From positions 9,939 to 73,938 of the forward strand of contig JAOUEW010000008.1 in assembly GCA_029858505.1 (NCBI GenBank): a stretch of DNA of 64,000 nt, in the 5' to 3' direction. Position 1 is the first letter of the stretch; every line of letters begins with the position of its first letter. Position numbers and translations under genes: made by a program. The stretch is from Deltaproteobacteria bacterium (GTDB taxonomy: Bacteria; SAR324; JACQKK01). Shown piece after piece: positions 25,878 to 63,432 of the stretch. The notes below the pieces were generated by a model. The model saw nothing but the letters and a program-made list of their open reading frames with translations, did no database searches and was not told where the DNA came from.

Positions 25878-26405
25878 TCAGGGGGCGTCGATCAACCCCA
25901 GGGCAGCAAGCCCCTGGCGATAAGCATCGCGCTTGAAGGGCACCACTTCTTCCGGCGCTTGGGCCACGTACACCCAGCGGTAATCATCAAACTCTGGGGG
26001 GTGGTGCTGAAAATGAATGGCCGTGACGGGCACTTTCAGCCGTACTAAAAACCAATACTGAGATTGACCCGTGAAGCGGGCCAAGGCGGGCTTGCCCTCG
26101 GTCAACCGCCGCAGCACATCGGGGGGGTAAAGGTAGGGGATGGGCTGGGGGGTTTGCTTCACCACTTCCACTTCGTCGGTGCCAATCTCTTCTTTCAGTT
26201 CGCGCAGCAAGGCTTGCAGGGGGGTTTCGCCCGGGTCCATGCCCCCTTGAGGAAACTGCCAGCGATATTCTCCCAGGCCGTCTCCCACCCGGCGGAACAT
26301 CAGCACCTCGTTCCCGCCTTCGCTGGCCACCACGGCCAGCACCGCCGGGCGCAAATGGGGGTTGTCTGCCTGGAGAGTCACGGACTGGGGGGTTGGGTTA
26401 GTCAT
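25878..26405 (-). CDS. NUDIX hydrolase (RppH/NudH-like).
   Basis: Nudix box GGMDPGETPLQALLRELKEEIG. Confidence 0.8.
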   Translation of the reverse strand: MTNPTPQSVTLQADNPHLRPAVLAVVASEGGNEVLMFRRVGDGLGEYRWQFPQGGMDPGETPLQALLRELKEEIGTDEVEVVKQTPQPIPYLYPPDVLRRLTEGKPALARFTGQSQYWFLVRLKVPVTAIHFQHHPPEFDDYRWVYVAQAPEEVVPFKRDAYRQGLAALGLIDAP

Positions 26406-27522
26406 CGGGGTATCTGCTTTTAATGGCCACCACGTGGTCTATATTGCCCAAGAATTGTTCCACCAAGGTGGGGTCAAAATGGGTTCCCGCCATTTTACGC
26501 ATCATGCTCACCGCCTCGTACCACGAGAAAGCGTCTTTGTACACGCGGCGGTTGGTGAGAGCGTCGAACACATCGCATATGGCCGTGATGCGGGCCTCGA
26601 GGGGGATGTTTTCCCCCTTCAATCCTTTGGGATAGCCCGTGCCGTCCCATTTTTCGTGGTGGTGCAGGGCCACCATCGCGGCCATTTCCAACAGGGGCAC
26701 CTGGGACCCCCGCAAAATTTGATAGCCGATGTCCACGTGAGTTTTCATCAATTCATATTCCGCCGGGGTGAGTTTTTCCGGCTTGTGCAGCACGTCGTCG
26801 GGAATGCCGATTTTCCCAATGTCGTGCAGGGCGGAAGCGGGGCGGATCATCCGCTGGGACGGCTCGTCCATGCCAGCCAGTTCAGCCAAGTATTGAGAGT
26901 AATGACTCATCCGCTGCACGTGGCGGTGGGTTTCGTTGTCGCGGAATTCGGCCACCCGCATCAGGCGGTTCACGATTTCCTCCTGAGCATATACCAAGTT
27001 CTGCTGGGTGTTTTTCAGAGTCACCAGGGTGGTACGCAGGTCTTCCGTCCGTTCCTGAATATCCAGTTCCAGGTTCACGCGTGCTTGGCGCTGGGCCATT
27101 TCCAACTGCCTTCGGCGCAGGGCGTTCGTCACGTTGATGATGAGCTCGATGGTCTTGAAGGGTTTGATTAAGTACCCATAGGCCCCTAAGGCCAGCACCT
27201 TGTCCGAGTTTTCCCGCTGATCGGAGGCGGTGACCATGATGGTGGCCATGTCGGGGAAGACTTTCAGGGTGCGTTCAATCAGTTCCAGGCCGCTCAACCC
27301 CGGCATGTTGATGTCGCACAGCATCAAGTCAAACGTATGCTCGCTTAACTGGGCCAGGGCATCCAAGGCATTCACCGCCTCAACGGGGGCAAAGCCCTCC
27401 CGACGCAAAATATCGCAGATCATTTTGCGCACCAGCCGGTCGTCATCCACCACCAGTGTCCGCACCGATTGGGGCGGCGCCAAAGGCGCTTCGGCGGGGG
27501 GCTGGGGGTTCGGTGGTTCCAT
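26398..27522 (-). CDS. Response regulator with an HD-GYP phosphodiesterase domain.
   Basis: Receiver LVVDDDRLVRKMICDIL...CDINMPGLSG, then HDIGKIGIPDDVL...HHHEKWDGTGYPKGL (HD-GYP). Confidence 0.85.
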   Translation of the reverse strand: MEPPNPQPPAEAPLAPPQSVRTLVVDDDRLVRKMICDILRREGFAPVEAVNALDALAQLSEHTFDLMLCDINMPGLSGLELIERTLKVFPDMATIMVTASDQRENSDKVLALGAYGYLIKPFKTIELIINVTNALRRRQLEMAQRQARVNLELDIQERTEDLRTTLVTLKNTQQNLVYAQEEIVNRLMRVAEFRDNETHRHVQRMSHYSQYLAELAGMDEPSQRMIRPASALHDIGKIGIPDDVLHKPEKLTPAEYELMKTHVDIGYQILRGSQVPLLEMAAMVALHHHEKWDGTGYPKGLKGENIPLEARITAICDVFDALTNRRVYKDAFSWYEAVSMMRKMAGTHFDPTLVEQFLGNIDHVVAIKSRYPDD

Positions 27523-45767: not shown

Positions 45768-46910
45768 TTACCGGGCACGCAAAAACAGCCATCCTCCCAG
45801 ACCCGTAAACAAAAAATTGGCCATCCAGGCTCCCAGAAAGGGGGTCAACGTCCCCCCCCGGCCCAACATCTGGAACACCTCGTTCGACACCCAAAAGCAC
45901 AGCCCGATCACAATGGCGATCAGCAACTCACCAGAACCCCGGGCGAATCGCACATGGCCCTGAGACAAACAAACGGCGATCCACACCATCAGGAACATGG
46001 CGTACAGGGCCGCGGGGATGCCATACCAAGCCAACAAGGCGTTGGTCACGTTTCGGCCTTCCTGGGCCAGCCGTTGAATTTCCCCATACAGGTCTAAAAA
46101 CGGGGTGTGGGCCAGGTCCAGGTCCATCGGCCGAAACACCTGAGGAAAGGCCTCTGGGGGAACCCACTGGTTGTCTTGGCTTTCCATCACCCACAGGGTC
46201 CCTTCGGCCCGCTGTTGGGAAATACGCTGGAACCGCCACCCCTCCCCGTCCCGAACGCCCCGTTGAATGGCGGCCAGGACCGAAATTTTCCCGGTCAGGG
46301 GGTCGGTTTGATACATTTGGATTCCCCCCAGGCTGCCGTTGGGCATGTCCATCCGGCTGAAATAATATAACCGGTTCCCGTGAATGCGCCATTTCTGGCG
46401 CTCTGCCGAGGCCTCGGTCAGGCTGGCGTTTTCCGGGTTAAGCCACGGCCGGAAATAACTTTTATTCACGTAAGAAAACGCCGCGATGGGAACCATCAGA
46501 ACCATCAACGGAATCATCATCCGCAGCGGGCTAAAGCCGGCGCTTTTCATGGCCACCAGTTCCGAGGTGCGCCCAAAGCCGGTGAAGGTAAACAGGGCCG
46601 CCAGCAAAATGCCCATGGGCAGCATCAGGTCCAGGGTATCGGGCAGGGTTTGCAGGGTTTTTTCCAGGAACCCCCGCACCCCGGCCCAGCCGTTGAACAC
46701 TTTGTCTACTTCGCCCAAAAACGTGCTGATCACCACCAGAGTGATTAAAAAAGCCACCACCAGGAACAGATTCTTCAAAAAAGCCCGGCTGACATAGCGG
46801 GAAAGAGCATCGGTGGGAAGGTGAATCCCCCAGGCACTGCCGCCCGAAGCCCTGTTTCTCCAGGGGGCACCAGGGTTTAACCGTTTCAACAGCAGCATAA
46901 CAGGGTTCAT
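45768..46910 (-). CDS. LptF/LptG-family LPS export permease (YjgP/YjgQ).
   Basis: 380 aa with six TM helices, a periplasmic beta-jellyroll insert, and an LptFG-like N-terminus (FLKNLFLVVAFLITLV). Confidence 0.7.
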   Translation of the reverse strand: MNPVMLLLKRLNPGAPWRNRASGGSAWGIHLPTDALSRYVSRAFLKNLFLVVAFLITLVVISTFLGEVDKVFNGWAGVRGFLEKTLQTLPDTLDLMLPMGILLAALFTFTGFGRTSELVAMKSAGFSPLRMMIPLMVLMVPIAAFSYVNKSYFRPWLNPENASLTEASAERQKWRIHGNRLYYFSRMDMPNGSLGGIQMYQTDPLTGKISVLAAIQRGVRDGEGWRFQRISQQRAEGTLWVMESQDNQWVPPEAFPQVFRPMDLDLAHTPFLDLYGEIQRLAQEGRNVTNALLAWYGIPAALYAMFLMVWIAVCLSQGHVRFARGSGELLIAIVIGLCFWVSNEVFQMLGRGGTLTPFLGAWMANFLFTGLGGWLFLRAR

Positions 46911-47067
46911 GGCCGGGGCTCGAATTCCTCTGGCAGAAAACGGGCGGATTCTGATACATTGTGAAGATGATCCGCCTTGTTATTTCTATCGTATCGTTTT
47001 ATCAAAGAAGAGTACAAAAGAGTACAAAGCGGTACCCGTCGGTGGCGCCCATGGAGGAAGGAAAAAC

Positions 47068-49602
47068 ATGCCAAAATCTATTCTGATTCTGGAGGAAAAC
47101 TCGGTTGTTCACGGGCTGATTGCCTCCTCCCTCGACGTGGAAGGGGTCACCCTGCATCACGAGTTTGATCCGGCCCGCTTCTTGGAAAAAGTGAAAGAAG
47201 TCCGCCCGGACCTCATCCTGATCAGCAATGAGGAACACCAACAGGGTTACCCCGTGTGCCGCCACCTGGGTGCCGATAAAGCATTTTCAGCCATACCATT
47301 GATTCTGCTGGCCAATTCCAGAGATTTTTTAGAGCCCCAAACCCTGAAAGACCTGCGCATTTCTGGGGTGATTCGCAAGCCCTTCGAGGCGGGAGACATT
47401 CAGCAGCAGGTGAGCAAGCACCTGGATTTGAACGATTTCATGGAATCCTCCTTCGAATTCCGCCGCTCTGGGGCCACTGGAGAGGACACCCCCCATCCCT
47501 TGTCGGGGGTGAAGGTGCTGGATTCGGATGTGTTGGGGTTGCTCCAAGATGACCCCGAAATCCCTGAAGAAGAAGCCATTCCAGACGTAAACTTTAACCA
47601 GGACCTGGAAACCGAGGGTTGGGGTGCCCAGGCGGCAGCCCCGGCGGCCCAGCCCACCCGACCGTTTGCCCCACAGGCCCCTGCTCCGAACGCGTTTCAA
47701 CCCCAAGTTGAGACCCAACAAGATTTTTCGGTGGATTCCTTCCAGGAAGAACCCTACCCGACAGAGACCTTCCCATCAGAGGACTTCCAGCCGGAAGAAA
47801 TCACCGAGTTGGGCGGCCAGGATATTCTATCGGCCCCCCAGCCCGGCCGAGGGGGCATGGCCCCGGCCTTCATGGAACAGCCCCTGAGAACAACCCCCCA
47901 GCCCCCTGCCGTGGAACCGGAGAGGGTGGAAGTGGAAATTCACGCCGAAGAAATCGATTTTCAGCGGATGAGCGCTTCGCTGCAAAGCGGAATTACCTTG
48001 TTTGAGGAAACCCCGGCCCCGCCCTCCCGCTCCTTCACGACCCCCGAGCCCTCTCGCCCGGCTGGCAAGCCAGCAAGCCAGTTTACTTCCCAGCCGGCCC
48101 CCCAGCCCGAACCCATGGTGGAGGCCTCGTCTTTCGACAGTTGGAACGCCGGGGAAGAATTTGACGCCCCTGCCCAGCCTGTGGCTCAACCCGCAGCCAA
48201 ACCCGTTGCCCAACCGGCCCCCCAGCCTGAGCCAGGGATGGAGCCCCTCGACAGTTGGAGCTCCGAGGAAGACTTTGCGGCCCCCTCCCTGGATGCCGAT
48301 GAAACCGGGTTTGAAACCGATCTGTCCTCGGCGGAAGAAGAAGAACTGCCCGACGCGGTCCGCCGGATGACCGAAATGAACTCGCCCCTGTCCATGACCC
48401 CAGAGGAACGGGCTACGATGGTGGAGGGCATGGCCCAAGAGGAAGGGGTGACCTTCGATTCTTCCGATGCCGAACTGTCTTCCATGGCCGACGACATGCG
48501 CAGCGTGGAGCTGGGCCAGCCCGAACCCTCGGCCTTCGAGGCCGCCCTGCCGACCCAAAACATTCCCCGGCGGGCGCCCGAACCAGAGTTTTTCACCACC
48601 CCGGATACCTTCAACGCAAACCCGGCAGACACCGCCAAACCTGTCCAAACCGGCCCGGATACCTGGGAATCTCCCTACCTGGAAAGCCCGCTGGAATACA
48701 GCATCGAGGAAGAATCCCTGACGGCGGACCCCTTTACCCCAGCGGCGCCCGCCCCGCGGGAAACACCCGACTTCCAGTTTGATGACGGCATGACCTATGA
48801 CACCGGAGAATCTTCCGTGCCCCCGGCCAGCAGCGGCCTGGATGCCTTTGAGGCCGAAACCATGGAGGGGCTGGACAGCATGACCCGCTCCTTTGAAGAA
48901 AAGCATTCCACCGAAACCCCCATGGAGTTCACGCCAGAAATTCATCACGAGAGCCCAGGATGGGAATTCGATGGAGCGGCCCCAGAACCCGTCAAAGAAG
49001 AGCCCCTGGCCCTGGATGGATTTTCACGGTCCACCAGCCCCGCCTCGGGAGGGTTAGAAGACCTGGAGGGCGTTCCCTCGTTTGACGAGCAAGAATTTTC
49101 CTTCGACGGGGGTGGGTCCTCTGCCGGAGGCTGGGATTCTTCTCCCCAGGGCGGTGAAAGCGATGGCTTTGATGACGCCCTGAGTATGCTGCGGGAAGAA
49201 ATTTACGCCCACCCGGAAGGCGAGCGGCTGGATGACCTGCTGACCCACGAGGCCGTGCAAGAAGCCGCCGCCAAGTTGGAAATGCCTTCGTTCTCTTCCC
49301 ACTCCACCTACATTCGGGCCATGGGGGTTTCGGTGCTCCCCGCCCAAGGAGACGTAGCCCCCCAAGAGGATGGATTAGACCAAGGCATGTTTGAAACCGA
49401 TTGGGCCAACCCCCCCACCAGATTTCAGCCCCCCGCCGGAGACCTGGACGGCCCCCACGCCTACCTGGACGAAGCCAGCATGGCCAAGCTGAACACTGTG
49501 CTAGACGAGGTGATTTCCACCTCGGTGCGCAGGGCGCTGGAAGAAGAAGTGCCCAAGATGATTCAAAAAGCCAGGCAGGATAAAGGACGGCATGGAGCTT
49601 GA
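47068..49602 (+). CDS. Response-regulator receiver fused to a long acidic, Pro/Glu/Asp-rich disordered region with internal repeats.
   Basis: Receiver ILILEENSVVHGLIASSL...DLILISNEE...IPLILLAN (phospho-acceptor Asp context retained). About 700 aa of low-complexity sequence with duplicated QPAPQPEP...DSW..EE(F/D)..AP blocks. Confidence 0.6.
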   Translation: MPKSILILEENSVVHGLIASSLDVEGVTLHHEFDPARFLEKVKEVRPDLILISNEEHQQGYPVCRHLGADKAFSAIPLILLANSRDFLEPQTLKDLRISGVIRKPFEAGDIQQQVSKHLDLNDFMESSFEFRRSGATGEDTPHPLSGVKVLDSDVLGLLQDDPEIPEEEAIPDVNFNQDLETEGWGAQAAAPAAQPTRPFAPQAPAPNAFQPQVETQQDFSVDSFQEEPYPTETFPSEDFQPEEITELGGQDILSAPQPGRGGMAPAFMEQPLRTTPQPPAVEPERVEVEIHAEEIDFQRMSASLQSGITLFEETPAPPSRSFTTPEPSRPAGKPASQFTSQPAPQPEPMVEASSFDSWNAGEEFDAPAQPVAQPAAKPVAQPAPQPEPGMEPLDSWSSEEDFAAPSLDADETGFETDLSSAEEEELPDAVRRMTEMNSPLSMTPEERATMVEGMAQEEGVTFDSSDAELSSMADDMRSVELGQPEPSAFEAALPTQNIPRRAPEPEFFTTPDTFNANPADTAKPVQTGPDTWESPYLESPLEYSIEEESLTADPFTPAAPAPRETPDFQFDDGMTYDTGESSVPPASSGLDAFEAETMEGLDSMTRSFEEKHSTETPMEFTPEIHHESPGWEFDGAAPEPVKEEPLALDGFSRSTSPASGGLEDLEGVPSFDEQEFSFDGGGSSAGGWDSSPQGGESDGFDDALSMLREEIYAHPEGERLDDLLTHEAVQEAAAKLEMPSFSSHSTYIRAMGVSVLPAQGDVAPQEDGLDQGMFETDWANPPTRFQPPAGDLDGPHAYLDEASMAKLNTVLDEVISTSVRRALEEEVPKMIQKARQDKGRHGA

Positions 49603-52246
49603 CCGTTATTCCCCCGCCCTGCTGGAGGAAAAGTGGTACCGTTACTGGACGGATCGGGGGTTGTTTCAACCCTCCATGGATAAGAACCGCCCGCCCTTCT
49701 GCATCGTCATTCCCCCGCCCAACGTCACCGGCTCCCTGCACATGGGCCACGCCTGGGACAACACCCTCCAGGATTTGTTGATCCGCTGGGAGCGGATGCG
49801 CGGCAAAAACACCCTGTGGGTCCCCGGCACCGACCACGCTGGCATTGCCACCCAATGGATGGTGGAAAAAATGCTGCGGAAAGACGGCAAAACCAAGGAA
49901 GGCCTGGGGCGGGAGGCATTTCTCAAAACCACCCACGCCTTCGCCGAAGAATCGAAGCGAACCATTACCGGCCAGCTGCGGCGGCTGGGGGTTTCGTGCG
50001 ACTGGAGCCGGGAACGGTTTACCCTGGACGAAGGCCTGACCCGGGCGGTTCGGCGGGAATTCGTGGAACTGCACCGCCGGGGGCTGGTGCGCCGCGACAA
50101 ACGCCTGGTGAACTGGTGCCCCCGCTGCCTCACCGCCCTGTCAGACTTGGAGGTGAACCACGAGGAAAAAGAAGGGGGCATGTGGCACATTCGCTACCCC
50201 CTGGCCCAAGGCGGGGGGCACATCGTGGTGGCCACCACCCGCCCGGAAACCCTGCTGGGAGACACCGCCGTGGCGGTGCACCCAGAAGATGAACGCTACA
50301 AGGACCTGGTGGGCAAAATGGTGAACCTGCCCCTCACGGGGCGGGCCATTCCCATCGTGGCCGATGACTACTGCGACCCCTCGTTTGGCTCTGGCGCGGT
50401 GAAGGTGACCCCAGGCCACGACCCCAACGACTTTGCCATCGGCCAGCGGCACAACCTGCCCATCCTCACCGTGATGAACGACGACGCCACCCTCAACGAC
50501 CTGGCGCCAGAAGCCTATCGGGGGATGGACCGGTTCAAGGCCCGCCAGCAAATGGTGGAGGACCTGGCCGCCCAGGGGCTGCTGGAAGGCCACAAAAAAC
50601 ACGTGCACATGGTGGGGGGGTGCAGCCGCTGCCACACCGTGGTGGAACCCCGGGTGTCGCTGCAGTGGTTCGTGAGCATGGAGGCCATGGCCCGCCGGGC
50701 GGTGGAAGCCGTGCGCTCGAAGCAGATAGAACTGCTGCCAGACTATCAGGAAAAGATTTTCTACGAGTGGATGAACAACATCCAAGACTGGTGCGTGTCT
50801 CGCCAGTTGTGGTGGGGCCACCGCATTCCGGTGTGGTACTGCAGCGCTTGCGGAACGGAACACGTGTCGGAGCAAGACTTGGCCGCCTGCCCGGCCTGCG
50901 GCGGGGGGCTAACCCAGGACCCCGACGTGCTGGACACCTGGTTCTCCTCGGGATTGTGGCCGTTTTCGGTGATGGGCTGGCCGGAGAACACCCCAGAGCT
51001 GAAGACCTTTTACCCCACTTCGGTGTTGGTCACCGGGTATGATATTCTGTTCTTCTGGGTGGCCCGCATGGCCATGCTGGGGCTGACCTTCATGGATGAG
51101 GTCCCTTTCCGCCAGGTATTTTTGCACGGCTTGCTGCGCGACAAAAACGGCGAGAAAATGTCGAAGACCAAGGGGAACGGCATTGACCCCCTGGAGGTGA
51201 TTGACCAGCACGGCGCCGACGCCCTGCGCTTTACCCTGGCCGCCCAAACCGTGATGGGCAAAGATATGTCGCTGTCGGAAGCGGCCATTGTGGGCTACCG
51301 GAACTTCATCAACAAAATCTGGAACGCCACCCGCTTTTACCTGGGCCACCAGGAACGCCTGGGGCCGCCCCCAGCCTGGCAGGGCCGGGCCCTGGGGCCC
51401 TTCGATCAGTGGATTCTCTCCCGGGCCGACCTGGCCGCGGGCGAGGCCAACCGCCACATGGAGGCCCGCCGCTTCAACGAAGCGGCCAAGGCCTTGTATC
51501 AGTTTGTGTGGGGCGAACTGTGCGATTGGTATGTGGAAACCGCCAAGCCTTCGCTCACCGGCGGCGATGCCCAGCGGGCCCTCACCACCCTGGGGGTTCT
51601 GCGGAGCGTGCTGGACCAGGCCCTGCGCCTGCTGCACCCCTTCATGCCTTTTGTCACCGAAGAACTGTGGCAGGCCCTGCGGGGAGACGCCCAGGAAAAC
51701 GAACGGCAGGGCCTGAGCGTGATGGTGCAGCCCTACCCCCAAGGAGGGGAGTACGCGGCCCCGGCGGAGCAGGTGGCCCGGGCCGGAGGGGTGATTGCCG
51801 TGGTGGAAGCCCTGCGGGCCATCCGAGGGGAATACAACGTGCCCCCCAAGCACAAAATCGAAGCGGTGCTGGTGACCACCCGGGACGACCTAAAATTGGC
51901 GGTGGAGGGCGAGGGCGACATGCTGCGCTTCTTGGCGGGGGTGGCCCGGCTCGACATCGCCCCGGCCCAGGCCGAACGCAAAGGGTACAGTTCCGCCGTG
52001 GGGGAAGGATTCGAGGTGCTGGTGTCGCTGGCGGGGCTGGTAGACACCGCCGCGGAACGCGCCCGGATGGGCAAAGAAATGGGGCGGCTGAAAGAAAAAG
52101 CGGAGATGCTGGCCGCCAAGCTGGACAACCCAGCCTTCCGCGACAAAGCCCCCCCGGCGGTCATTGAAAAAAACCGGGCAGAACTGGCCAGCCTGGAAGA
52201 ACAAATGGCCGCCCTGGCCAACAGCCTAGAGGCCCTGCCAGGATAG
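49592..52246 (+). CDS. valS: Valine--tRNA ligase.
   Basis: Class I HIGH (PPPNVTGSLHMGHA) and KMSKS (EKMSKTKGN) motifs, plus a C-terminal coiled coil. 884 aa. Confidence 0.95.
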   Translation: MELDRYSPALLEEKWYRYWTDRGLFQPSMDKNRPPFCIVIPPPNVTGSLHMGHAWDNTLQDLLIRWERMRGKNTLWVPGTDHAGIATQWMVEKMLRKDGKTKEGLGREAFLKTTHAFAEESKRTITGQLRRLGVSCDWSRERFTLDEGLTRAVRREFVELHRRGLVRRDKRLVNWCPRCLTALSDLEVNHEEKEGGMWHIRYPLAQGGGHIVVATTRPETLLGDTAVAVHPEDERYKDLVGKMVNLPLTGRAIPIVADDYCDPSFGSGAVKVTPGHDPNDFAIGQRHNLPILTVMNDDATLNDLAPEAYRGMDRFKARQQMVEDLAAQGLLEGHKKHVHMVGGCSRCHTVVEPRVSLQWFVSMEAMARRAVEAVRSKQIELLPDYQEKIFYEWMNNIQDWCVSRQLWWGHRIPVWYCSACGTEHVSEQDLAACPACGGGLTQDPDVLDTWFSSGLWPFSVMGWPENTPELKTFYPTSVLVTGYDILFFWVARMAMLGLTFMDEVPFRQVFLHGLLRDKNGEKMSKTKGNGIDPLEVIDQHGADALRFTLAAQTVMGKDMSLSEAAIVGYRNFINKIWNATRFYLGHQERLGPPPAWQGRALGPFDQWILSRADLAAGEANRHMEARRFNEAAKALYQFVWGELCDWYVETAKPSLTGGDAQRALTTLGVLRSVLDQALRLLHPFMPFVTEELWQALRGDAQENERQGLSVMVQPYPQGGEYAAPAEQVARAGGVIAVVEALRAIRGEYNVPPKHKIEAVLVTTRDDLKLAVEGEGDMLRFLAGVARLDIAPAQAERKGYSSAVGEGFEVLVSLAGLVDTAAERARMGKEMGRLKEKAEMLAAKLDNPAFRDKAPPAVIEKNRAELASLEEQMAALANSLEALPG

Positions 52247-54461: not shown

Positions 54462-55931
54462 ATGACCGCTGCCCCCCCGGAAAACGAATCTGCCCCCACT
54501 TCCCCCCCGCCCTACAACGTACTGCTGTGCATCGCCGACCCCCGGATGCGTCAATTGCTGGCGTTTAGCTTCCGACGGAGTCAATTGCACGTGGTGGAAA
54601 CCTCCACCGCCCAAGAGGTGCTGGCCCAAAGCAAACAGATGAACTCCTACGCCGCGGTGTGCGTATGCGACCTTCCCCCCCAGGGGATGGACGGAGTGGC
54701 CTTTCTGCGGGCCATGCAAAAAGCCTCAGTCTATCATCCCGTGGTGATGATCACCGAGGATGTGTCTCCGGCGGAATTGATCCGGCTGGAAAAAGCCGAT
54801 GTGTACCGGGTGATCAAGCGAGACGTGGGGCTGGAAGACCTGCGCATGACGGTGCGAAACGCCATGGTGTTCTCTCATCTGCAGATCCGGGTAGAGCAGA
54901 TGGAGCAGGAGCATCAAGGCATCATCCCCGACATGATTGGCAGCAGCGCGGCCATTGTAAAGGTGCGAAAACTGGTGAACAAAGCCCTGAACCGGGATAT
55001 TACCGTTTTGCTGGAGGGAGAAAGCGGCACGGGAAAGGAACTGGTGGCCCGGGCCATTCACACCCAATCCAACCGCAAGGAGCACAAATTCGTGGCCATC
55101 AACTGCGCGGCCATCAACCCCACCCTGCTCGACAGCCAGCTGTTCGGCCACGAGCGGGGAGCCTTCACCGGCGCCATCAACCGCCAGGTGGGCCGGTTTC
55201 AAGAGGCCGACGGCGGAACGTTGTTCTTGGATGAAGTGGGGGATTTAAGCATGGAGCTTCAGGCCAAACTGCTGCGGGTCATCCAAACCCGGGTGGTGGC
55301 CCCCCTGGGTGGAAAGGAAACCAAGGTCGACGTGCGGCTGGTCTCGGCCACCAACGTGGATTTGCAGGCCGCCGTGCGCGCCGGGCGGTTCCGCCAAGAT
55401 TTATACTACCGGCTGGCCGGGTACCCTATTCCTCTTCCCCCCCTGCGTTCTCGGGGAGACGACGTGATCACTCTGGCTCGGTTCTTCTTGCAGCAGTTTG
55501 CCAAAAAGGAAAACAAAAAAATCCAGGGCATCAAGCCCGACGTGGAGAAAGCCCTGTTAAAACACAACTGGCCGGGGAACGTGCGGGAGCTGGAAAACAT
55601 GATCTTCCGCGCGGTGGTGATTTGCGAGGACAAAAAACTGTCCATGGAGGATTTCCCCGCCCTGCTGGGGGAAGACCTGCGGGAAAGCGCTCCTTTTCCG
55701 GCCCCGCCTGCCTGGGCTCCGCCAGCGCAGGCCGTGCCGGTGGCTGCCGCCCCTTCTTTTGGAACTCCAGAGCCTCCCGCCGGGCCGCAGTCGCTGGCCA
55801 ACCTGGAGGCCCATGCCATTCGCCACGCGGTGGAACAAGCCCGGGGAAACCTGAGTCTGGCCAGCCGGACCCTGGGCATCAGCCGGGCCACCTTGTATCG
55901 CAAGGTCGAACGCTACGGGCTGAAAATGTAA
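54462..55931 (+). CDS. Sigma-54-dependent transcriptional activator (NtrC family: receiver + AAA+ + Fis HTH).
   Basis: GESGTGKE Walker A, GAFTGA sigma-54 contact loop, and a C-terminal HTH (LASRTLGISRATLYRK). Confidence 0.9.
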   Translation: MTAAPPENESAPTSPPPYNVLLCIADPRMRQLLAFSFRRSQLHVVETSTAQEVLAQSKQMNSYAAVCVCDLPPQGMDGVAFLRAMQKASVYHPVVMITEDVSPAELIRLEKADVYRVIKRDVGLEDLRMTVRNAMVFSHLQIRVEQMEQEHQGIIPDMIGSSAAIVKVRKLVNKALNRDITVLLEGESGTGKELVARAIHTQSNRKEHKFVAINCAAINPTLLDSQLFGHERGAFTGAINRQVGRFQEADGGTLFLDEVGDLSMELQAKLLRVIQTRVVAPLGGKETKVDVRLVSATNVDLQAAVRAGRFRQDLYYRLAGYPIPLPPLRSRGDDVITLARFFLQQFAKKENKKIQGIKPDVEKALLKHNWPGNVRELENMIFRAVVICEDKKLSMEDFPALLGEDLRESAPFPAPPAWAPPAQAVPVAAAPSFGTPEPPAGPQSLANLEAHAIRHAVEQARGNLSLASRTLGISRATLYRKVERYGLKM

Positions 55932-56058: not shown

Positions 56059-57342
56059 ATGACCGACAAAGCAAAGCTAGACGTAGGCGGTAAAACCGTG
56101 GAACTCCCCCTGGTGGTGGGATCGGAAAAAGAGGTGGGAATTGATATTTCCGCCCTGCGCCAAGCCACCGGCGCTATTACCCTTGATTATGGCTACGGCA
56201 ACACGGGTTCTTGCGAAAGCGCCATTACTTTTCTCGATGGCGAGGAAGGCATTCTGCGCTATCGGGGTTATCCCATCGAGGACTTGGCCGAAAAATCGTC
56301 CTTTTTAGAGGTCAGCTACCTGCTGATCTACGGTGAACTGCCCACCCCCCAGCAGATGAAAGACTTCAACCGCAACATCGCCCGCCATTCCCTGCTGCAC
56401 GAAGACATGAAAAATATTTTTCAGGCCTTCCCGCCCGACGCCCACCCCATGGCCATCCTGGGGTCGGTGGTGTGCGCCCTGTCTACCTATTATCAGCACG
56501 GCGATGAAACCCATGAGGAAGGGCTGAATCAGTCGATTTACCGGCTGATGGGCAAGCTGCCCACCATTGCTTCCTTTGCCTATAAAAAATCCATCGGCCA
56601 GCCCTACATTTACCCCCGCACCGACCTGGATTATTGCACCAACTTTTTCCACCAAATGTTCGCCGTGCCCACCGAGCCCTACCCGGTGCATCCCGACATC
56701 GCCCGGGCGCTGGACGTTTTGTTGATTTTGCACGCCGACCACGAGCAAAACTGCTCCACCTCCACGGTGCGGTTGGTGGGCTCTAGCCAGGCCAACCTGT
56801 TCGCCTCCATCTCGGCGGGAATTTCAGCCCTGTGGGGGCCCCTGCACGGCGGGGCCAACCAAGCCGTGCTGGAAATGCTGGAGGCCATCAAGGCCGGCGG
56901 GGGAGACGTGAAGAAATACGTGGCCATGGCCAAAGACAAAAACTCCTCGTTTCGGCTGATGGGCTTTGGCCACCGGGTTTACAAAAACTTCGACCCCCGG
57001 GCCAAAATCATCAAAGCCCATGCCGACCGGGTACTGAGCCTGCTGGGGATGGACGACCCTTTGATCCACATTGCCCACGAGCTAGAGGAAGCCGCCCTGA
57101 AGGACGACTACTTCATTCAGCGCAAGTTGTATCCCAACGTGGATTTTTACAGCGGCATCATCTACCGGGCCTTGGGCATTCCCCAAAACATGTTCACGGT
57201 GATGTTCGCCATTGGGCGGCTGCCGGGCTGGATAGCCCATTGGAAGGAAATGAACCGCTCCGACAAAAACCGCATTGGCCGCCCCCGGCAAATTTACACC
57301 GGCAGCACCAAGCGGGAATACAACCCCATACACAAGCGGTAG
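56059..57342 (+). CDS. gltA: Citrate synthase (type II).
   Basis: GFGHRVYK and HADHEQN catalytic motifs. 427 aa. Confidence 0.9.
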   Translation: MTDKAKLDVGGKTVELPLVVGSEKEVGIDISALRQATGAITLDYGYGNTGSCESAITFLDGEEGILRYRGYPIEDLAEKSSFLEVSYLLIYGELPTPQQMKDFNRNIARHSLLHEDMKNIFQAFPPDAHPMAILGSVVCALSTYYQHGDETHEEGLNQSIYRLMGKLPTIASFAYKKSIGQPYIYPRTDLDYCTNFFHQMFAVPTEPYPVHPDIARALDVLLILHADHEQNCSTSTVRLVGSSQANLFASISAGISALWGPLHGGANQAVLEMLEAIKAGGGDVKKYVAMAKDKNSSFRLMGFGHRVYKNFDPRAKIIKAHADRVLSLLGMDDPLIHIAHELEEAALKDDYFIQRKLYPNVDFYSGIIYRALGIPQNMFTVMFAIGRLPGWIAHWKEMNRSDKNRIGRPRQIYTGSTKREYNPIHKR

Positions 57343-57361: not shown

Positions 57362-57399
57362 GACTGGGGGGTGAACCCCCCAGTCGCCTGTTTTTTCTT
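57362..57399 (+). terminator. Rho-independent terminator after gltA.
   Basis: GACTGGGGGGtgaaCCCCCCAGTC hairpin followed by a T-rich run (CCTGTTTTTTCTT). Confidence 0.65.
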
Positions 57400-58066
57400 A
57401 CCCCTCCAGAATTTCCACCAGGGTTCCCACTTCCACCAGGTCGAACAACTCGGCCACGGCTTGGTTGGCCATCCGCACGCAGCCGATGGAGCGGGGCTGG
57501 CCCAGCCAGCCTTCTTCCCGGGTGCCGTGGATGTAAATGTAGCGGTCGTGGGTGTCCACCTCTCCCCCCTGGTTTTTCCCCGGCTCTAACCCCCCCAGCC
57601 ACAAAATGCGGGTGGTGATGGCGTCCTCCCCCGCTGCCGGCTGGCCTTCCAGCGGCAAAACCACCTGTCCGGTTTCTTTGCGGCCTTTGAACACCGCCCC
57701 CAGGGGGGCGCCTGCCCCGATTTTTTCTTCCACCCGGTGACTGCCCATGGGGGTTTGGTGAGAGCCCCGCTGGCAGCCTAACCCCCGGGCGCTGGTGGAC
57801 ACTGGCCAGGTTCGTTCGATCTTCCCTTCCCGCACCAGCCACAGTTCCTGCCGGGGGGGGCAAACCACCAGCACGGGCTGCCGGAAGCTCAACCCATGGG
57901 GTGCCAAGCGGGCCAGGGCGGCGGCCAGGGCCTGGGCGACGAAAGCGGCAGATTCAGTGGAAGAAGCATTGCTCATGGCAAATGGGCGGCGTGTGCGTTC
58001 AAGGAGGAGTGAGACCCGTTTTGGGGCTTTCCCAGTCATTTTCACCCGGCCCACCCCCAGGAGCAA
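57398..58066 (-). CDS. L,D-transpeptidase family protein (YkuD domain).
   Basis: YIYIHGT...GCVRMAN catalytic His/Cys motif. The exact start is uncertain. Confidence 0.65.
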   Translation of the reverse strand: MLLGVGRVKMTGKAPKRVSLLLERTRRPFAMSNASSTESAAFVAQALAAALARLAPHGLSFRQPVLVVCPPRQELWLVREGKIERTWPVSTSARGLGCQRGSHQTPMGSHRVEEKIGAGAPLGAVFKGRKETGQVVLPLEGQPAAGEDAITTRILWLGGLEPGKNQGGEVDTHDRYIYIHGTREEGWLGQPRSIGCVRMANQAVAELFDLVEVGTLVEILEG

Positions 58067-58214
58067 GGAAAACGGAGAACCAAAGAGGGATTTGTTTGGC
58101 CGTATTTGGCTGGCATGCCAAAAGTTCCTGGCAGCCTGGGCTGTCCAAATGAGTCCGCCAGAAAGCAGAAGTGGAAGGTTTTGTTTTCCTTTTATTCCAG
58201 ATATTATGAGGAAA

Positions 58215-58228
58215 TATGACCGGTCATA
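58215..58228. promoter_or_regulatory. Perfect 14-bp palindrome TATGACCGGTCATA in an AT-rich region upstream of the cNMP-kinase/adenylate cyclase operon.
   Basis: Direct reading. Lies about 90-140 bp upstream of the candidate starts, in an AT-rich stretch. Confidence 0.35.
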
Positions 58229-58318
58229 AAATATATCTTTTTAGGTTATACTCCCCCCAGAAAAGCTACGGGAAGACGAACGATTTTTAGGGGGCTGTGA
58301 AACGGGCCATTCCAAAGG

Positions 58319-60058
58319 GTGATAGATCACAAGATTGGGCTTGGGCTGAAAGGAATTGCGATGGAAAAACCCGGAAACATTCAGCTACAAGAGGAAGTGG
58401 GCGTTTTGGAGGAATTGCGCACCCTGGTTCCCTTTGCCCCGTTTACCCCGGATGAGCGTCGGTTTTTATCTGTCTATTGCAGCCTGAAATCGGCGGGAGA
58501 AGGGGAAGTCTTGATCCGGGAGGGGGACCCCTCCGACAACCGGGCTTATTTTCTGCTGTCTGGCGAAGTGTCTGTGTACGTGAACGAGAAGTTTATTTTG
58601 TCGTTGGGGAGGAAGGGAGACATTTTTGGGGAAATGAGTTTGGTCAGTGCGGAGCCCCGGTCGGCCACGGTGCGGGCCACCCGCCCCTGCCGCCTGATGG
58701 TGGTTACCTCGCCCCTCACCTTTCACGGGGCCGAGGAAGAATCTCTGCTGTCGTACCGCCTGCGTTATTACTTTACCCGGATGTTCAGCAACATCATGGC
58801 CGAAAAACTGCGCACCACCTCGGACCGGGCCAAGATGTACGAGGAGGCCATCGCCCAAAGCCGCCAGGCCGAAGCCCATTCCGCCAGCCTGGAAGAAACC
58901 GTTGCCCATAACCTGGAGCAGATCCGGCTGTACTCTCACCTGGTCGAAAGCGCCAACGATGCCATTTTGCTGCTGAATCTGGACCGGCGGGTGCGGGACG
59001 CTAACCAATCGTTGCATGCCCGGTTTGGGCTAGACACTGGCCAAGTGGTGATGCGCTCGATCAAAGAGGTGCTGCTGCTGCCACCGGGAATGAATTGGGA
59101 TGACGTGTTTGCCCAGGCCGACACCGCGGGTTGGAGCGGGGAAGTGGAAGTAGGAACCGACCGCCATCCCGCCGGGTGCTCCATCTCTTTGGTGGCCGAC
59201 ACCCAGGGCAACCGCATGGCCTACTCGGTGATTCTGCACGACATTCGCGCCCGCAAAGAATATGAAGCCCGTATTCTTCACCAGCAGGCAGAGTTGGAAA
59301 AATCCTACAAGGAATTGCAGGTGATGGACCGGTTGAAAACCCAGTTTCTCACCCTGGTGTCTCACGAGCTGCGCACCCCCATCTCCATCGTGATGGGATC
59401 GCTGGAGGTGTTGGCCATGCCGGGCGACATGGACCCGGCCGATGAAGAGTCCTTTCTGCAGTCTTCCTTGGGGGGTATCCAGCGGCTGGCGTCGCTGGTG
59501 GACCGGGTGATGATGTTCTCGAAACTGGAAAGTGGAGAAATGCCCTTCGACCTGGAGGAAGGCGTGCTGCCCGACCTGGTGCGGGCCCAAATCAACGCCT
59601 GCCAAAAACAGGCCGAAGAACACCATGTGCGGTTGGTTTACCAGGGGCCAGAAAGCTTGCCCCCCTGCGCCTTCGACCACAAAATGATGGCCATGGCTCT
59701 GGACCAGGTGCTGCACAACGCGGTGAAATTCTCCCCCAAGGGAGAGGTGACCGTAAGCCTGGAACAAACACCGGAAGAAACATTGATCCGGGTGCGGGAT
59801 ACGGGTAAAGGTATAGAGATTGACCGCCCCGAACGACTGTTGAACAAGTTTGAACATATGGCCTCCACCCGCGACAAATCCGAAGGCATTGGGCTGGGCC
59901 TGCCGCTTACCCATCTCATTGTCCGGGGGCATCAAGGGTCATTGGATATCACCTCCCAACCTGGCCAAGGAACCGCCGTGACCTTTCACCTGCCCTGTCT
60001 TTCGGCGGCAGACGCCAAAGGCGAAGCCGCGTTCCCATTCCACCGGAAGAACACCTAA
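58319..60058 (+). CDS. Sensor histidine kinase with an N-terminal cyclic-nucleotide-binding (cNMP) domain.
   Basis: cNMP-binding motif GDIFGEMSL...RSATVRA, PAS-like middle region, H-box LVSHELRTP, HATPase N/G boxes. Start may instead be M15 at 58361. Confidence 0.8.
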   Translation: MIDHKIGLGLKGIAMEKPGNIQLQEEVGVLEELRTLVPFAPFTPDERRFLSVYCSLKSAGEGEVLIREGDPSDNRAYFLLSGEVSVYVNEKFILSLGRKGDIFGEMSLVSAEPRSATVRATRPCRLMVVTSPLTFHGAEEESLLSYRLRYYFTRMFSNIMAEKLRTTSDRAKMYEEAIAQSRQAEAHSASLEETVAHNLEQIRLYSHLVESANDAILLLNLDRRVRDANQSLHARFGLDTGQVVMRSIKEVLLLPPGMNWDDVFAQADTAGWSGEVEVGTDRHPAGCSISLVADTQGNRMAYSVILHDIRARKEYEARILHQQAELEKSYKELQVMDRLKTQFLTLVSHELRTPISIVMGSLEVLAMPGDMDPADEESFLQSSLGGIQRLASLVDRVMMFSKLESGEMPFDLEEGVLPDLVRAQINACQKQAEEHHVRLVYQGPESLPPCAFDHKMMAMALDQVLHNAVKFSPKGEVTVSLEQTPEETLIRVRDTGKGIEIDRPERLLNKFEHMASTRDKSEGIGLGLPLTHLIVRGHQGSLDITSQPGQGTAVTFHLPCLSAADAKGEAAFPFHRKNT

Positions 60059-60061
60059 CCC

Positions 60062-62905
60062 ATGAGCAATGGAAAACAACCTGGGGGATCGGACGACCGA
60101 GCGAGAGGAAAAACCCATGGTGGAACGGGCCTGGCCGCGTTGTTTGCCGCCCCCATGGATCTTCCCACGGATTGGACCCAGCTGTTGCGGGCGGGGTATG
60201 ACCAGGGTACGGCCTTTTTCGAGCGCTTCAACAACAACCGGCTGGAACTGGCCTTTAAGGCGTTCGATGAAGAAATGAAGAAGGCCTTGTTCGAGGTGTT
60301 GTTCCTGTTGCACGTCAATGACCCTCGAATGGCCCAATGGAAATTCACGGCCACCCGCCGAGTATCAGAAAACGGAATTTTACGGGAAAAACAGGTGCAA
60401 GAAACCGCCGACCTGTATGTGGACGGCGCCCCCCACGGCCTGGAAGGGATTGAAGCGCTCTCTCCGTTGTTCCGCAAAGAGTTTGAAGAATACACCCGCA
60501 AAGTCTTCGAAATCCCCATCAACCCCCTGTCTTCCTACGGATTCAACCCGGTGGTCAGCGTTCACTCGCTGGGTTCAATTGGCACGGTGGGGCATAAATC
60601 GAAAGCCTCCGACCTGGACCTGCAGGTGCAGTTTGAGTTGGAACCCTTTTTGTTCGACACCTCGGATTGGAGCGACAACACCTTTGTGGATGCCCTGCAG
60701 CGAGAAACCTTGGCCCGGGCCAACCGCATTCGTGCCGCCGACCAACTGCCCCCCGATGCCATGAAGGACCCCAAGTTTCGCCAAGACCTGATGGCCCGGG
60801 CAGGGCAAGACATGCGCAAAGGGTTCCCCACGCTGTACAAATATCTTGTCGCCAAAGAGGGCGACTACTCCCGCGACTTGGCCGGGGCCAAGGGGGGCCC
60901 GCTGCGCAATCAGCTGCTGATGGAAATCATGATGCTGATGAAGCGGGCGGGACGCATGGCCCAGCCCGAGGTCTACAAAAAGCGAGAAACTTCCTTCCGC
61001 GAGAGAATCGGGAAGATTCAAGAATACATCATGGCCAAGTTTCCCGCGGCCGAGATTTATTTGTTTACCTGCAACAACGACGACTACCGGCGCGGCTACC
61101 ATGGAACCACCCTGGAGTCGAAAGAGGCTTCGGGATCGGCTTATGAGTTGATTTTGAATTACGAGACCCTGATGCCGGGAATCCAACTGACCCCCATGAT
61201 TCCCCTGCATTTTGTCGTGCCCAAACCCATGAACGATGAGCCCGCCCGCTATGACCGGGTGGTGGATTACATCCGGTTCAACCTGCTGGATATTTACCAG
61301 CCCGTGCGCAAACGGCTGGTGAACCTGGGCCCCACCCCCGACATGACCCTGGACTACATGGGCGCCCACGGCGGGGCGGTATATTGGGAGGCCTTCAAGG
61401 CGTCCTCTGGCAACCTGCCCAAGGCCACCTTGAACCTGTTCCGCATTGAAATGCTGCTGAACAAGGCCTTTCTGAAAACCATCATTCAATTGATCAAAGA
61501 GCCCAAACTGCTGCACGCCTTTGCCGCCCCCAAGCCGGAAGACCCCGGTAAACAGATCGAGCAAATGGTGGCCGGGAAAATTGGCCTGCCCGCCTGGGCG
61601 GTGATTGAAATGGAAGCCCTGTTCCCAGGCCTAACCTTCGACCCCTGGTGGCTGCGCTACAAAGCCCTCAAGATTGGCTTTGGGGAAGAAAAGGGCGTGC
61701 CTGGGCTGGACAAAGAAGAGCGCGGACGGATTTCGTCGGTGATTGACTTGGCGTTTGCCCTCCATGTCCGCCTGTCCGACGTATTCACCAAACCCGGAGA
61801 CACCCGGCCCCTGGATTCGTTCCGGGAAAAAGTTCTGCTGGAATTCCTCAAACGGGCGTTTCCACCCGTATCCGAACGGCGAACCTATCTGGAACATTTG
61901 TTTATCGGCGAAGTGCGCTCGGTGAATCAGTTTGAAATGGAGCTGCGCGACTTGTTCAAACGCAGTCTGGCCCGGGCCAACAAGCGGCTGGAAGACATGA
62001 ACGTGGCGGGGATGGGCAACAAAAAAGAGTTCGAAATTTGGTTTCACTATTATCAAGAAAACTTCGAGCCCGCCGCCAACGTGGTGCAGCGCACCATCAT
62101 GAACCACTTGAAAACCCCCCGGGGCCGGCTGCAAGTGGGCTATGTCCCCAAAGAAGGATGGTTCTTTAAGTCTCTGCAAAAACAGTCTGGGGTGGGAAAG
62201 CGCTTCGACACGTTTGGAACCCTGGATCACCTGCCCGATGAGGTGATGCTGCTGGAAAAGTCTCCGTTTCTTTCGGGGCTGGCCCACTGCATCATCAACG
62301 GTTACTACGGCATTTTGAACAAGGGTACCCTGAAAGAAAGCCGAACCCAACTGGAGTTCGACGCCCGCCACATGGACATGGGCAACAAAACCGATAACGA
62401 ATACGCCTTCATCCGCCCCGACAGCGTGGAACGAATTGTCGACAAAATCCTGCGGCACTTTCCCTTTCAACCCTATCACTACATGGACTGCATTCGGCTG
62501 AAACGTAAAATTACCGAAGTCATGGTGTTTTACAACCTGGTGCATTACGGGAGGGTCAGCATTTTATACAGAGACAACCTGCGCACCTGGTATGCCGATG
62601 AATTCGACCACCCCGACATTTACGGCCAGGCCCAAAAGCTCGTCCACAGCAGGCAGGCCTCCATGGCCGCCAAGCCGCTGCATATGACCCTCTCCAAGTT
62701 TTTTAAGTCGAAGGGAATTGCCCTGGACGATGTGGCGCTGGATGTGTGGGTGAACCCCCACAGCATCGAAATAGAGGGAGGCCTAGCCCAGATGGGCCAA
62801 AAAGAAGCCGCGCTGGGGCGTGACTTCCTCAATATTTTAATGCAGATTCACGGGCCCAAACCGGTACCCGGAGCCCCCAAGCCGGTCCAGCCGCCCCCAT
62901 CGTAA
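60062..62905 (+). CDS. cyaA: Class I (enterobacterial CyaA-type) adenylate cyclase.
   Basis: Nucleotidyltransferase motif SLGSIGTVGHKSKASDLDLQV parallels E. coli CyaA (MGSTSSVGQSCSSDLDIWV). 947 aa, about 4 bp downstream of the kinase. Confidence 0.65.
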   Translation: MSNGKQPGGSDDRARGKTHGGTGLAALFAAPMDLPTDWTQLLRAGYDQGTAFFERFNNNRLELAFKAFDEEMKKALFEVLFLLHVNDPRMAQWKFTATRRVSENGILREKQVQETADLYVDGAPHGLEGIEALSPLFRKEFEEYTRKVFEIPINPLSSYGFNPVVSVHSLGSIGTVGHKSKASDLDLQVQFELEPFLFDTSDWSDNTFVDALQRETLARANRIRAADQLPPDAMKDPKFRQDLMARAGQDMRKGFPTLYKYLVAKEGDYSRDLAGAKGGPLRNQLLMEIMMLMKRAGRMAQPEVYKKRETSFRERIGKIQEYIMAKFPAAEIYLFTCNNDDYRRGYHGTTLESKEASGSAYELILNYETLMPGIQLTPMIPLHFVVPKPMNDEPARYDRVVDYIRFNLLDIYQPVRKRLVNLGPTPDMTLDYMGAHGGAVYWEAFKASSGNLPKATLNLFRIEMLLNKAFLKTIIQLIKEPKLLHAFAAPKPEDPGKQIEQMVAGKIGLPAWAVIEMEALFPGLTFDPWWLRYKALKIGFGEEKGVPGLDKEERGRISSVIDLAFALHVRLSDVFTKPGDTRPLDSFREKVLLEFLKRAFPPVSERRTYLEHLFIGEVRSVNQFEMELRDLFKRSLARANKRLEDMNVAGMGNKKEFEIWFHYYQENFEPAANVVQRTIMNHLKTPRGRLQVGYVPKEGWFFKSLQKQSGVGKRFDTFGTLDHLPDEVMLLEKSPFLSGLAHCIINGYYGILNKGTLKESRTQLEFDARHMDMGNKTDNEYAFIRPDSVERIVDKILRHFPFQPYHYMDCIRLKRKITEVMVFYNLVHYGRVSILYRDNLRTWYADEFDHPDIYGQAQKLVHSRQASMAAKPLHMTLSKFFKSKGIALDDVALDVWVNPHSIEIEGGLAQMGQKEAALGRDFLNILMQIHGPKPVPGAPKPVQPPPS

Positions 62906-63003: not shown

Positions 63004-63432
63004 ATGGACAGCCTCATCGCCCTGCTGCTGTTTATTCTGGTGTTGGCTTTTTCCGCTCACCGGCTCACCCGCCCGGCCCCCACCACCCGTGTTTTGCTGG
63101 AAGACAAGGTGGCCCATATCCATGGGCAAGAGGGAGACATGCGTGAAAAAGTGAAAGCCGTGGTGGAAGCAATCCCCCCGGGCCGGGTGCTGCCGCTGGC
63201 GGTGGTGGGGGAACTGGCGGGGGAGAAAGATACGTTTAAGGTTATTCGGGTCATGCGCCAGCTGGCGGCAGACCCGGCGGTGCCTTGGTGGCGGGTGGTA
63301 AAGGGCACGGCTGGCAGTGGCCACATGGCCGCCTATGCCGATCCGGCCCGGCAAGAGGCACTGCTGGCGCAAGAGGGGGTGACGGTGGAGGGGGGTGCTG
63401 TGGCGTTGGATGTTTTTCGTTGGGAGGTTTAG
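63004..63432 (+). CDS. MGMT-family / alkyltransferase-like DNA-binding protein with an N-terminal TM helix.
   Basis: AAYADPARQEALLAQEG...VPWWRVV resembles the Ogt/ATL C-terminal domain, but the active-site Cys is not evident. Confidence 0.45.
   Translation: MDSLIALLLFILVLAFSAHRLTRPAPTTRVLLEDKVAHIHGQEGDMREKVKAVVEAIPPGRVLPLAVVGELAGEKDTFKVIRVMRQLAADPAVPWWRVVKGTAGSGHMAAYADPARQEALLAQEGVTVEGGAVALDVFRWEV

Follow-up and report, generated by a model that had tools for sequence, protein, structure and literature searches.

We analysed a stretch of 64,000 nucleotides (nt) from Deltaproteobacteria bacterium (GTDB lineage SAR324; JACQKK01; assembly GCA_029858505.1, contig JAOUEW010000008.1, positions 9,939 to 73,938 of the forward strand), which we call the window, and in it two adjacent genes on the plus strand. 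The first encodes a histidine kinase with an N-terminal cyclic-nucleotide-binding domain and the second a protein of 947 amino acids that is distantly related to class I adenylate cyclases. Sequence comparison identifies this pair as a putative two-gene (possibly three-gene) signalling cassette specific to one clade of SAR324-type bacteria, and we favour, with moderate confidence, the view that a cyclic nucleotide made by the 947-amino-acid enzyme is read by the neighbouring kinase. The genes and the region that make up the locus are:

57398-58066, minus strand: YkuD L,D-transpeptidase gene, divergent from the kinase gene
58067-58360, no strand: divergent intergenic region of 294 base pairs (bp) between the YkuD (minus) and kinase (plus) genes, in which a promoter is presumed
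58361-60058, plus strand: kinase gene (Pfam), 565 amino acids, product 100% identical to the NCBI protein P0350 (565 amino acids)
60062-62905, plus strand: gene of the 947-amino-acid class I adenylate-cyclase-like nucleotidyltransferase, its ATG 3 nt past the kinase stop
63004-63432, plus strand: small gene with an MGMT-type DNA-binding domain (PF01035, E 1.3e-9), possible third gene of the operon

The kinase gene most likely starts at the ATG at 58361, which is preceded by AAAGGA 7 nt upstream and yields exactly the deposited NCBI protein; a GTG at 58319 is a less likely start. Pfam matches gave the domain order cyclic-nucleotide-binding, linker, PAS, HisKA and HATPase_c. None of these matches was to a membrane-associated domain (a direct prediction of transmembrane helices was not made), and the kinase is predicted to be soluble. 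Its features, all within the 565-amino-acid product, are:

58493-58705, plus strand: core of the cyclic-nucleotide-binding domain (PF00027, E 4.9e-17, 62.1 bits against a cut-off of 27.5)
58625-58672, plus strand: phosphate-binding cassette FGEMSLVSAEPRSATV, within the cyclic-nucleotide-binding domain
58943-59260, plus strand: PAS domain (PF08448, PAS_4, E 3.3e-6), a possible second input
59336-59536, plus strand: HisKA (PF00512, E 3.5e-13, 49.8 bits), the kinase core spanning 59336-59995
59363-59365, plus strand: phospho-acceptor His335, in HisKA
59687-59995, plus strand: HATPase_c (PF02518, E 2.2e-21, 76.8 bits)

The first-pass annotation of this DNA, made by a model from the letters and open reading frames alone, had placed a cyclic-nucleotide-binding domain at the kinase N-terminus, and the PF00027 match with its intact phosphate-binding cassette bears this out. 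BLASTP aligned the sensor domain to Escherichia coli CRP (E 5e-10), with Glu91, Arg100 and Ser101 opposite CRP Glu72, Arg82 and Ser83, the residues by which CRP contacts the ribose and phosphate of its cyclic nucleotide. The orthologues of the kinase fall into 49 clusters of the same architecture and 40–49% identity, across which the G1 and G2 boxes and the FGE...R-SATV residues of the cassette are conserved, with an invariant H-box, SHELRTP. The match list falls abruptly to generic kinases past these 49 clusters, and the kinase represents a narrow orthologous group. Conservation of the cassette suggests that the predicted sensor domain can bind a cyclic nucleotide. Its sequence gives no discrimination among cyclic AMP (cAMP), cyclic GMP and cyclic CMP or cyclic UMP (cCMP/cUMP), and it matched the cyclic-nucleotide-binding domains of Pycsar effectors (E 2e-14) as well as it matched the general Pfam model. 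The architecture of a cyclic-nucleotide-binding histidine kinase is listed in domain censuses, and our literature search found no biochemical study of such a protein.

A gene about 4 bp downstream, encoding some 950 amino acids with the class I nucleotidyltransferase motif, had also been described by the first-pass annotation. It is indeed there: the kinase ends with TAA at 60056-60058, the cyclase-like gene begins with the ATG at 60062 after a gap of 3 nt, and the product of 947 amino acids carries GSIGTVGHKSKASDLDLQV at residues 171-189. The short gap and the lack of a clear Shine-Dalgarno sequence ahead of the second ATG are compatible with translational coupling, and the two genes are probably coupled in this way.

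Scanning a single genome for each species yielded 75 loci of cyclase-like genes, all from SAR324-type MAGs (metagenome-assembled genomes) and often two or three paralogues per MAG. A kinase of the cyclic-nucleotide-binding type lay immediately upstream in all loci whose product is 56–67% identical to the window protein (13/13) and in none of the others (0/62, at most 52% identity). In a neighbour-joining tree the kinase-linked genes and the window gene formed a single clade, and the genes that flank the pair differ among loci. Approached from the kinase side, a gene of 954–956 amino acids abuts or overlaps the kinase gene downstream in both contigs that were recovered (two of three look-ups), and the 49 clusters of kinase orthologues form a group no wider than the cyclase-like clade. 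Taken together, these comparisons strongly support what appears to be a conserved functional gene pair.

Conserved co-transcription could also be explained without any read-out of the neighbour's product, with the kinase controlling its neighbour through direct contact or with both proteins following a common upstream signal. The large C-terminal half of the cyclase-like protein could be a docking or regulatory domain, the PAS domain of the kinase is a possible independent input, and the other paralogue clades work without a cyclic-nucleotide-binding partner. The cyclase-like protein has no receiver domain, however, and is therefore not a phosphotransfer target, and the combination of a cyclase homologue with a cyclic-nucleotide sensor in 13/13 loci is most simply read as a producer and its receptor. 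We regard an arrangement without read-out as improbable.

The putative producer was compared with class I adenylate cyclases by sequence, profile and structural model. Its features are:

60194-61741, plus strand: class I catalytic-region homology, residues 45 to about 560, the alignment extending to 827
60572-60628, plus strand: nucleotidyltransferase motif GSIGTVGHKSKASDLDLQV, residues 171-189, with metal-binding Asp184 and Asp186
60668-60979, plus strand: helical insertion of about 105 amino acids, residues 203-306 (hhalign gap, family alignment and AlphaFold helices 205-326)
61742-62905, plus strand: C-terminal half, residues 561-947, helical and then mixed alpha/beta, with predicted local distance difference test (pLDDT) scores mostly above 85

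The sole Pfam match of the 947-amino-acid protein is PF12633 (Adenyl_cycl_N), a marginal pass at residues 51-189 (27.2 bits, cut-off 27.0, E 4.6e-6), and the same precomputed match is present in most family members. An alignment to E. coli CyaA over the catalytic domain, which the first-pass annotation had proposed as a check, failed at the level of single sequences, where BLASTP aligned the motif alone (E 0.002), and succeeded at the level of profiles. Against a shallow enterobacterial CyaA alignment, whose sequences are all at least 84% identical, hhalign recovered residues 54-190 only (87.8% probability), the remainder not being significant. Against a diverse class I set, composed of E. coli CyaA and divergent enzymes retrieved by the family profile, the family aligned over 539 columns (99.0%, E 4.7e-18), matching residues 45-827 to CyaA 4-559, a score that may be somewhat inflated because these class I sequences were picked via the family profile. 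The fragment 300-620 alone gave 93.6% (E 2e-7) against the same set.

The E-values of the library-wide profile search are free of that selection effect. The profile, derived from 31 family members, was run in an exhaustive search of 1.84 billion representative proteins and retrieved 114 sequences at E up to 0.001, comprising the family itself, a second tier of longer proteins (1250–1320 amino acids) and a few others. The few others were retrieved at E 2.6e-8 to 3.4e-4, and the four that were scanned all carried PF12633 and PF01295 and are, by domain content, bona fide class I cyclases. Apart from its own family and class I cyclases, the exhaustive profile search detected no homologues of the 947-amino-acid protein. 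On these profile comparisons, the protein is assigned a genuine though distant homology to the catalytic region of class I enzymes. Residues 560-947 showed no likeness to the regulatory domain when compared with full-length enterobacterial CyaA (hhalign probability below 1%), and divergent class I enzymes likewise lack the part of PF01295 that corresponds to the regulatory domain.

Like CyaA, the 947-amino-acid protein is large and soluble, has its catalytic part in the N-terminal half, is homologous over the whole catalytic region and carries the same G-S...S-D-L-D motif. The motif residues Gly171/Ser172, Ser183, Asp184 and Asp186 are invariant in the 31 family members and correspond to CyaA Gly102/Ser103, Ser113, Asp114 and Asp116. 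Also invariant in both groups are Glu355, Gly358, Trp442, Lys446 and Lys454 (CyaA Glu172, Gly175, Trp249, Lys253 and Lys260), and 97% of the family retain Asp527, the aligned counterpart of CyaA Asp300. Unlike CyaA, the protein carries the insertion of about 105 amino acids, which separates the DxD strand from the following core strand and is present in all family members examined and absent from canonical class I enzymes, and a beta-hairpin insertion of 26 amino acids at residues 92-117 of the family. Its C-terminal part has no relation to the regulatory domain of enterobacterial CyaA, and the family occurs as two to three paralogues per genome in SAR324/Lambdaproteobacteria MAGs.

AlphaFold modelled the whole protein with a pLDDT of 86.8 and a predicted template modelling score (pTM) of 0.84, and the catalytic fragment with a pLDDT of 87.7. 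Foldseek searches of the PDB with the full model and with the 444-residue catalytic fragment found nothing at E 0.001 or below, as might be expected when no class I cyclase structure has been deposited. We predict that the 947-amino-acid enzyme is very probably active with class I chemistry. That the adjacency is incidental and the cyclase-like protein an inactive relic would agree with the annotation of every database copy as hypothetical. It is opposed by catalytic residues that are invariant across 31 sequences only 43–62% identical to each other, by the confident AlphaFold model and by a pairing kept in every orthologous locus despite changing flanks, and we hold it to be extremely improbable.

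Several results weigh against a cyclic nucleotide passing from this enzyme to this kinase, or against the enzyme being a class I adenylate cyclase at all. The first-pass annotation had let its class I call depend on profile searches, and these were divided. PF12633 was passed by 0.2 bits, whereas PF01295 (Adenylate_cycl) gave no match even at E 10, compared with 858.7 bits for E. coli CyaA, and the three NCBIfam class I models scored 24.6, 24.1 and 10.5 bits against cut-offs of 1300, 802 and 1035, although they aligned collinearly to residues 56-189 and 311-466. By curated thresholds, the protein does not qualify as a canonical class I adenylate cyclase; the remote homology of the original call stands (hhalign E 4.7e-18) and family membership by those thresholds does not. 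Three residues that are invariant within the class I set used here, Trp118, Arg188 and Lys264, are replaced by Gln188, Met371 and Asn458, so that the substrate, the product or even the type of reaction may differ; Trp118, at least, is reportedly important for activity. The inflation to which the hhalign score is open belongs on the same side, as does a PDB sequence search that found nothing for either the 947-amino-acid protein or E. coli CyaA and hence no class I structure to compare. The paralogue clades that are not linked to the kinase have no cyclic-nucleotide-binding neighbour. Finally, neither the window nor the orthologous loci have a receiver-domain gene next to the pair, and without a linked response regulator the description of the locus as a complete module was not upheld.

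The two receiver proteins of the window, an NtrC-type activator (54462-55931) and a protein with receiver and HD-GYP domains (26398-27522), are encoded by genes that are not syntenic with the kinase/cyclase-like pair elsewhere. The latter, on the minus strand, is a response regulator of HD-GYP type (HD_5) and a putative cyclic di-GMP (c-di-GMP) phosphodiesterase, which points to further nucleotide second-messenger signalling in the same genome. The window held no second cyclic-nucleotide-binding protein and no second cyclase-like paralogue.

Since Trp118 and Arg188, two of the class I invariants, have been substituted, we can only infer that the enzyme makes cAMP. The protein could instead be a class I-fold nucleotidyltransferase with another product, be it a different cyclic mono- or oligonucleotide or a nucleotidylated protein or small molecule, and the sensor would then read that product or the cyclic nucleotide of another enzyme. 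Consistent with this are the changes of Trp118 to Gln, Arg188 to Met and Lys264 to Asn, the 105-amino-acid insertion beside an active-site strand together with the 26-amino-acid beta-hairpin, the wide margin by which the curated class I models were failed, and a sensor that matches the domains of Pycsar effectors, which sense cCMP/cUMP, as well as it matches the general Pfam model. Yet adenylate cyclases are the only detectable relatives, the Ser/Asp-x-Asp core and the equivalents of Lys253, Lys260 and Asp300 are all kept, no PADLOC cyclase or CD-NTase model matches, and a strictly linked sensor with a canonical Glu/Arg cassette argues for some 3',5'-cyclic mononucleotide. We consider a non-cAMP product unlikely, but the foremost of the alternatives.

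In the mechanism that we favour, read-out of the enzyme's cyclic nucleotide by the kinase, the 947-amino-acid protein would belong to the class I superfamily as a highly divergent enzyme that retains catalytic competence, with a nucleotidyltransferase core of the polymerase-beta type. It would most likely turn a nucleoside triphosphate into a 3',5'-cyclic mononucleotide, cAMP being the default guess. The co-transcribed upstream kinase would bind that product via its N-terminal cyclic-nucleotide-binding domain, binding would change the autophosphorylation of His335 through the coiled-coil linker and the PAS domain, and the phosphoryl group would then be handed to a response regulator whose gene lies at another genomic site. 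The enzyme product, the sensor ligand, the cAMP feedback and the operator control proposed for this locus are what we infer rather than observe. A further-reaching version would see in the family an unrecognised branch of the class I fold, expanded to two to three copies per genome, with one clade hard-wired to a kinase as its dedicated receptor and no transcription-factor receptor. Its messenger may not be cAMP, given the Trp118 to Gln and Arg188 to Met changes and the 105-amino-acid insertion around the active site. This version we think doubtful, and quite unlikely as a whole.

Three known systems invite comparison. With respect to class I cyclases, of which, to our knowledge, almost only E. 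coli-type CyaA is known and no structure has been solved, the producer gene is predicted to be a new divergent variant of the fold. With CRP-type and protein kinase A-type receptors, as exemplified by E. coli CRP, the kinase sensor shares the canonical cassette Glu and Arg-Ser. It differs in its output, which is HisKA/HATPase_c via PAS and not a helix-turn-helix or a regulatory interaction with a protein kinase, and its read-out would go by phosphorelay. With Pycsar, the locus shares a dedicated cyclase side by side with a dedicated cyclic-nucleotide sensor, and the sensor itself matches the effector domain. Pycsar effectors fuse this domain to TIR or transmembrane effectors and sense cCMP/cUMP. 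In contrast to these, the effector here is a two-component kinase and not a cell-killing domain, the 947-amino-acid protein fits no Pycsar or CBASS cyclase model, and there is no defence-island context, the window neighbours being housekeeping genes. A CBASS or Pycsar cyclase had been considered for the 947-amino-acid protein and was rejected with zero PADLOC matches to any cyclase or CD-NTase model.

If correct, the favoured reading would describe a circuit from second messenger to phosphorelay without a transcription-factor receptor, and the strict pairing offers a concrete and testable example of a two-component kinase that reads a cyclic nucleotide. The cyclase-like family extends the relatives of class I enzymes well beyond their classical hosts, and a distant branch that folds well in the model provides a second vantage point on the essentials of the class I fold. 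SAR324 is an abundant uncultured lineage of marine and groundwater habitats that is known only from metagenomes, and the locus points to an expanded nucleotide second-messenger system in it.

The first-pass annotation had also proposed a palindromic operator ahead of the kinase gene. The element is:

58215-58228, no strand: perfect 14-bp palindrome TATGACCGGTCATA, 133–146 bp upstream of the kinase ATG, with no evidence of function

The palindrome is present in the AT-rich region as described, the intergenic region 58067-58360 having 46% G+C compared with 60% across the window, but its frequency is at chance level, it is not conserved and it is not CRP-like. It could serve as the operator of a dimeric transcription factor, for example a cAMP-responsive one, for the kinase/cyclase operon or for the divergent YkuD gene. 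It is perfect, occurs as a single copy in the window even when up to two mismatches are allowed, and lies in a divergent promoter region; the chance of one such palindrome within this single 294-bp stretch is 0.016; and a -10-like TATACT identified by eye at 58247-58252 would put the centre of the palindrome at about -38. The window has dozens of intergenic regions, however, so about one such event is expected, and perfect palindromes of at least 14 bp number 4 in the window against 5.3 +/- 2.4 in composition-matched shuffles. Neither the palindrome nor its half-sites (TATGAC/GTCATA) occurred in the 330 bp ahead of the kinase gene at 12 orthologous loci, a comparison across distant loci only, the closest orthologue sharing 67% protein identity. 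Under relaxed criteria, the window showed no further copies of the palindrome or half-sites beyond chance. Read directly, its symmetry (TATGA-CCGG-TCATA) fits neither the CRP pattern TGTGA-N6-TCACA nor the FNR pattern TTGAT-N4-ATCAA, and promoter scans of the intergenic region gave no sigma-70 and no sigma-54 consensus. An operator at this site is decidedly improbable. With its chance-level frequency, its absence from the 12 loci, the lack of CRP or FNR geometry and the absence of a detected promoter, the palindrome is probably fortuitous and not an operator, and it contributes nothing to the significance of the locus. The longest perfect palindrome of the window, 16 bp at 56408-56423 (TGAAAAATATTTTTCA), lies inside the coding sequence of citrate synthase, which indicates that such palindromes occur here without a regulatory context. 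The intergenic region 58067-58360 gave no Rfam RNA match, and a terminator scan of it gave nothing usable.

The cyclase-like family is small, the relatives of the window protein all derive from MAGs of the SAR324 cluster or of Candidatus Lambdaproteobacteria, all database copies carry the label hypothetical, and our literature search found no papers on adenylate cyclases of SAR324. Several paralogue clades sit among housekeeping genes. Others have constant neighbours of their own: in L055, L057 and L062 a protein of 1115–1190 amino acids with TPR and CHAT domains is always encoded upstream of the cyclase-like paralogue, and in L051, L056, L061 and L069 a 246-amino-acid FecR-domain protein is encoded upstream and a 503-amino-acid protein without Pfam match downstream. 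FecR and CHAT proteins also accompany class III cyclases of the CHASE2 type, which would fit a signalling role. In one paralogue (P0056, 1082 amino acids, from a SAR324 MAG) the precomputed Pfam list includes a PilZ domain (PF07238), from which at least one paralogue may be controlled by c-di-GMP. The second tier of the profile search (P0278, P0284, P0286-P0297 and P0311; 1160–1320 amino acids) aligned to the family profile past the insertion (E 1e-30 to 1e-68). The only Pfam match of P0278 is PF12633, and the tier is a still less characterised sister group.

Downstream of the pair, the small protein encoded at 63004-63432 combines an N-terminal hydrophobic helix with an MGMT-type domain in which the active-site Cys is replaced (PWWRV), as the catalytic Cys is in alkyltransferase-like proteins. 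A small MGMT-type gene also follows the cyclase-like gene at L011:8593-9072, L078:10546-10953 and L002:5051-5455; the spacing is a gap of about 100 nt in the window and a 4-nt overlap in L078. The gene occurs in three separate lineages of the kinase-linked clade and is absent from others, for example L079. It could be a third member of the operon. On the other side of the pair, at least six orthologous loci encode, on the kinase strand and just ahead of the kinase gene, a protein of 154–186 amino acids without Pfam match and with a hydrophobic N-terminus by eye; the window lacks it and has the divergent YkuD gene in its place. The coordinates of the 154–186-amino-acid protein are:

L007:5523-5996
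L011:3380-3934
L060:5574-6041
L068:5231-5791
L078:5368-5832
L079:5424-5906

Two further observations concern the wider window. Between the convergent citrate synthase and YkuD genes, a strong G+C-rich hairpin of 10 bp with T-runs on both strands (57362-57385) looks like a bidirectional terminator. An open reading frame of 897 amino acids on the plus strand (46909-49602) has no Pfam match at E 1e-5 or better, and its last 11 nt are shared with the start of the valyl-tRNA synthetase gene (49592-52246).

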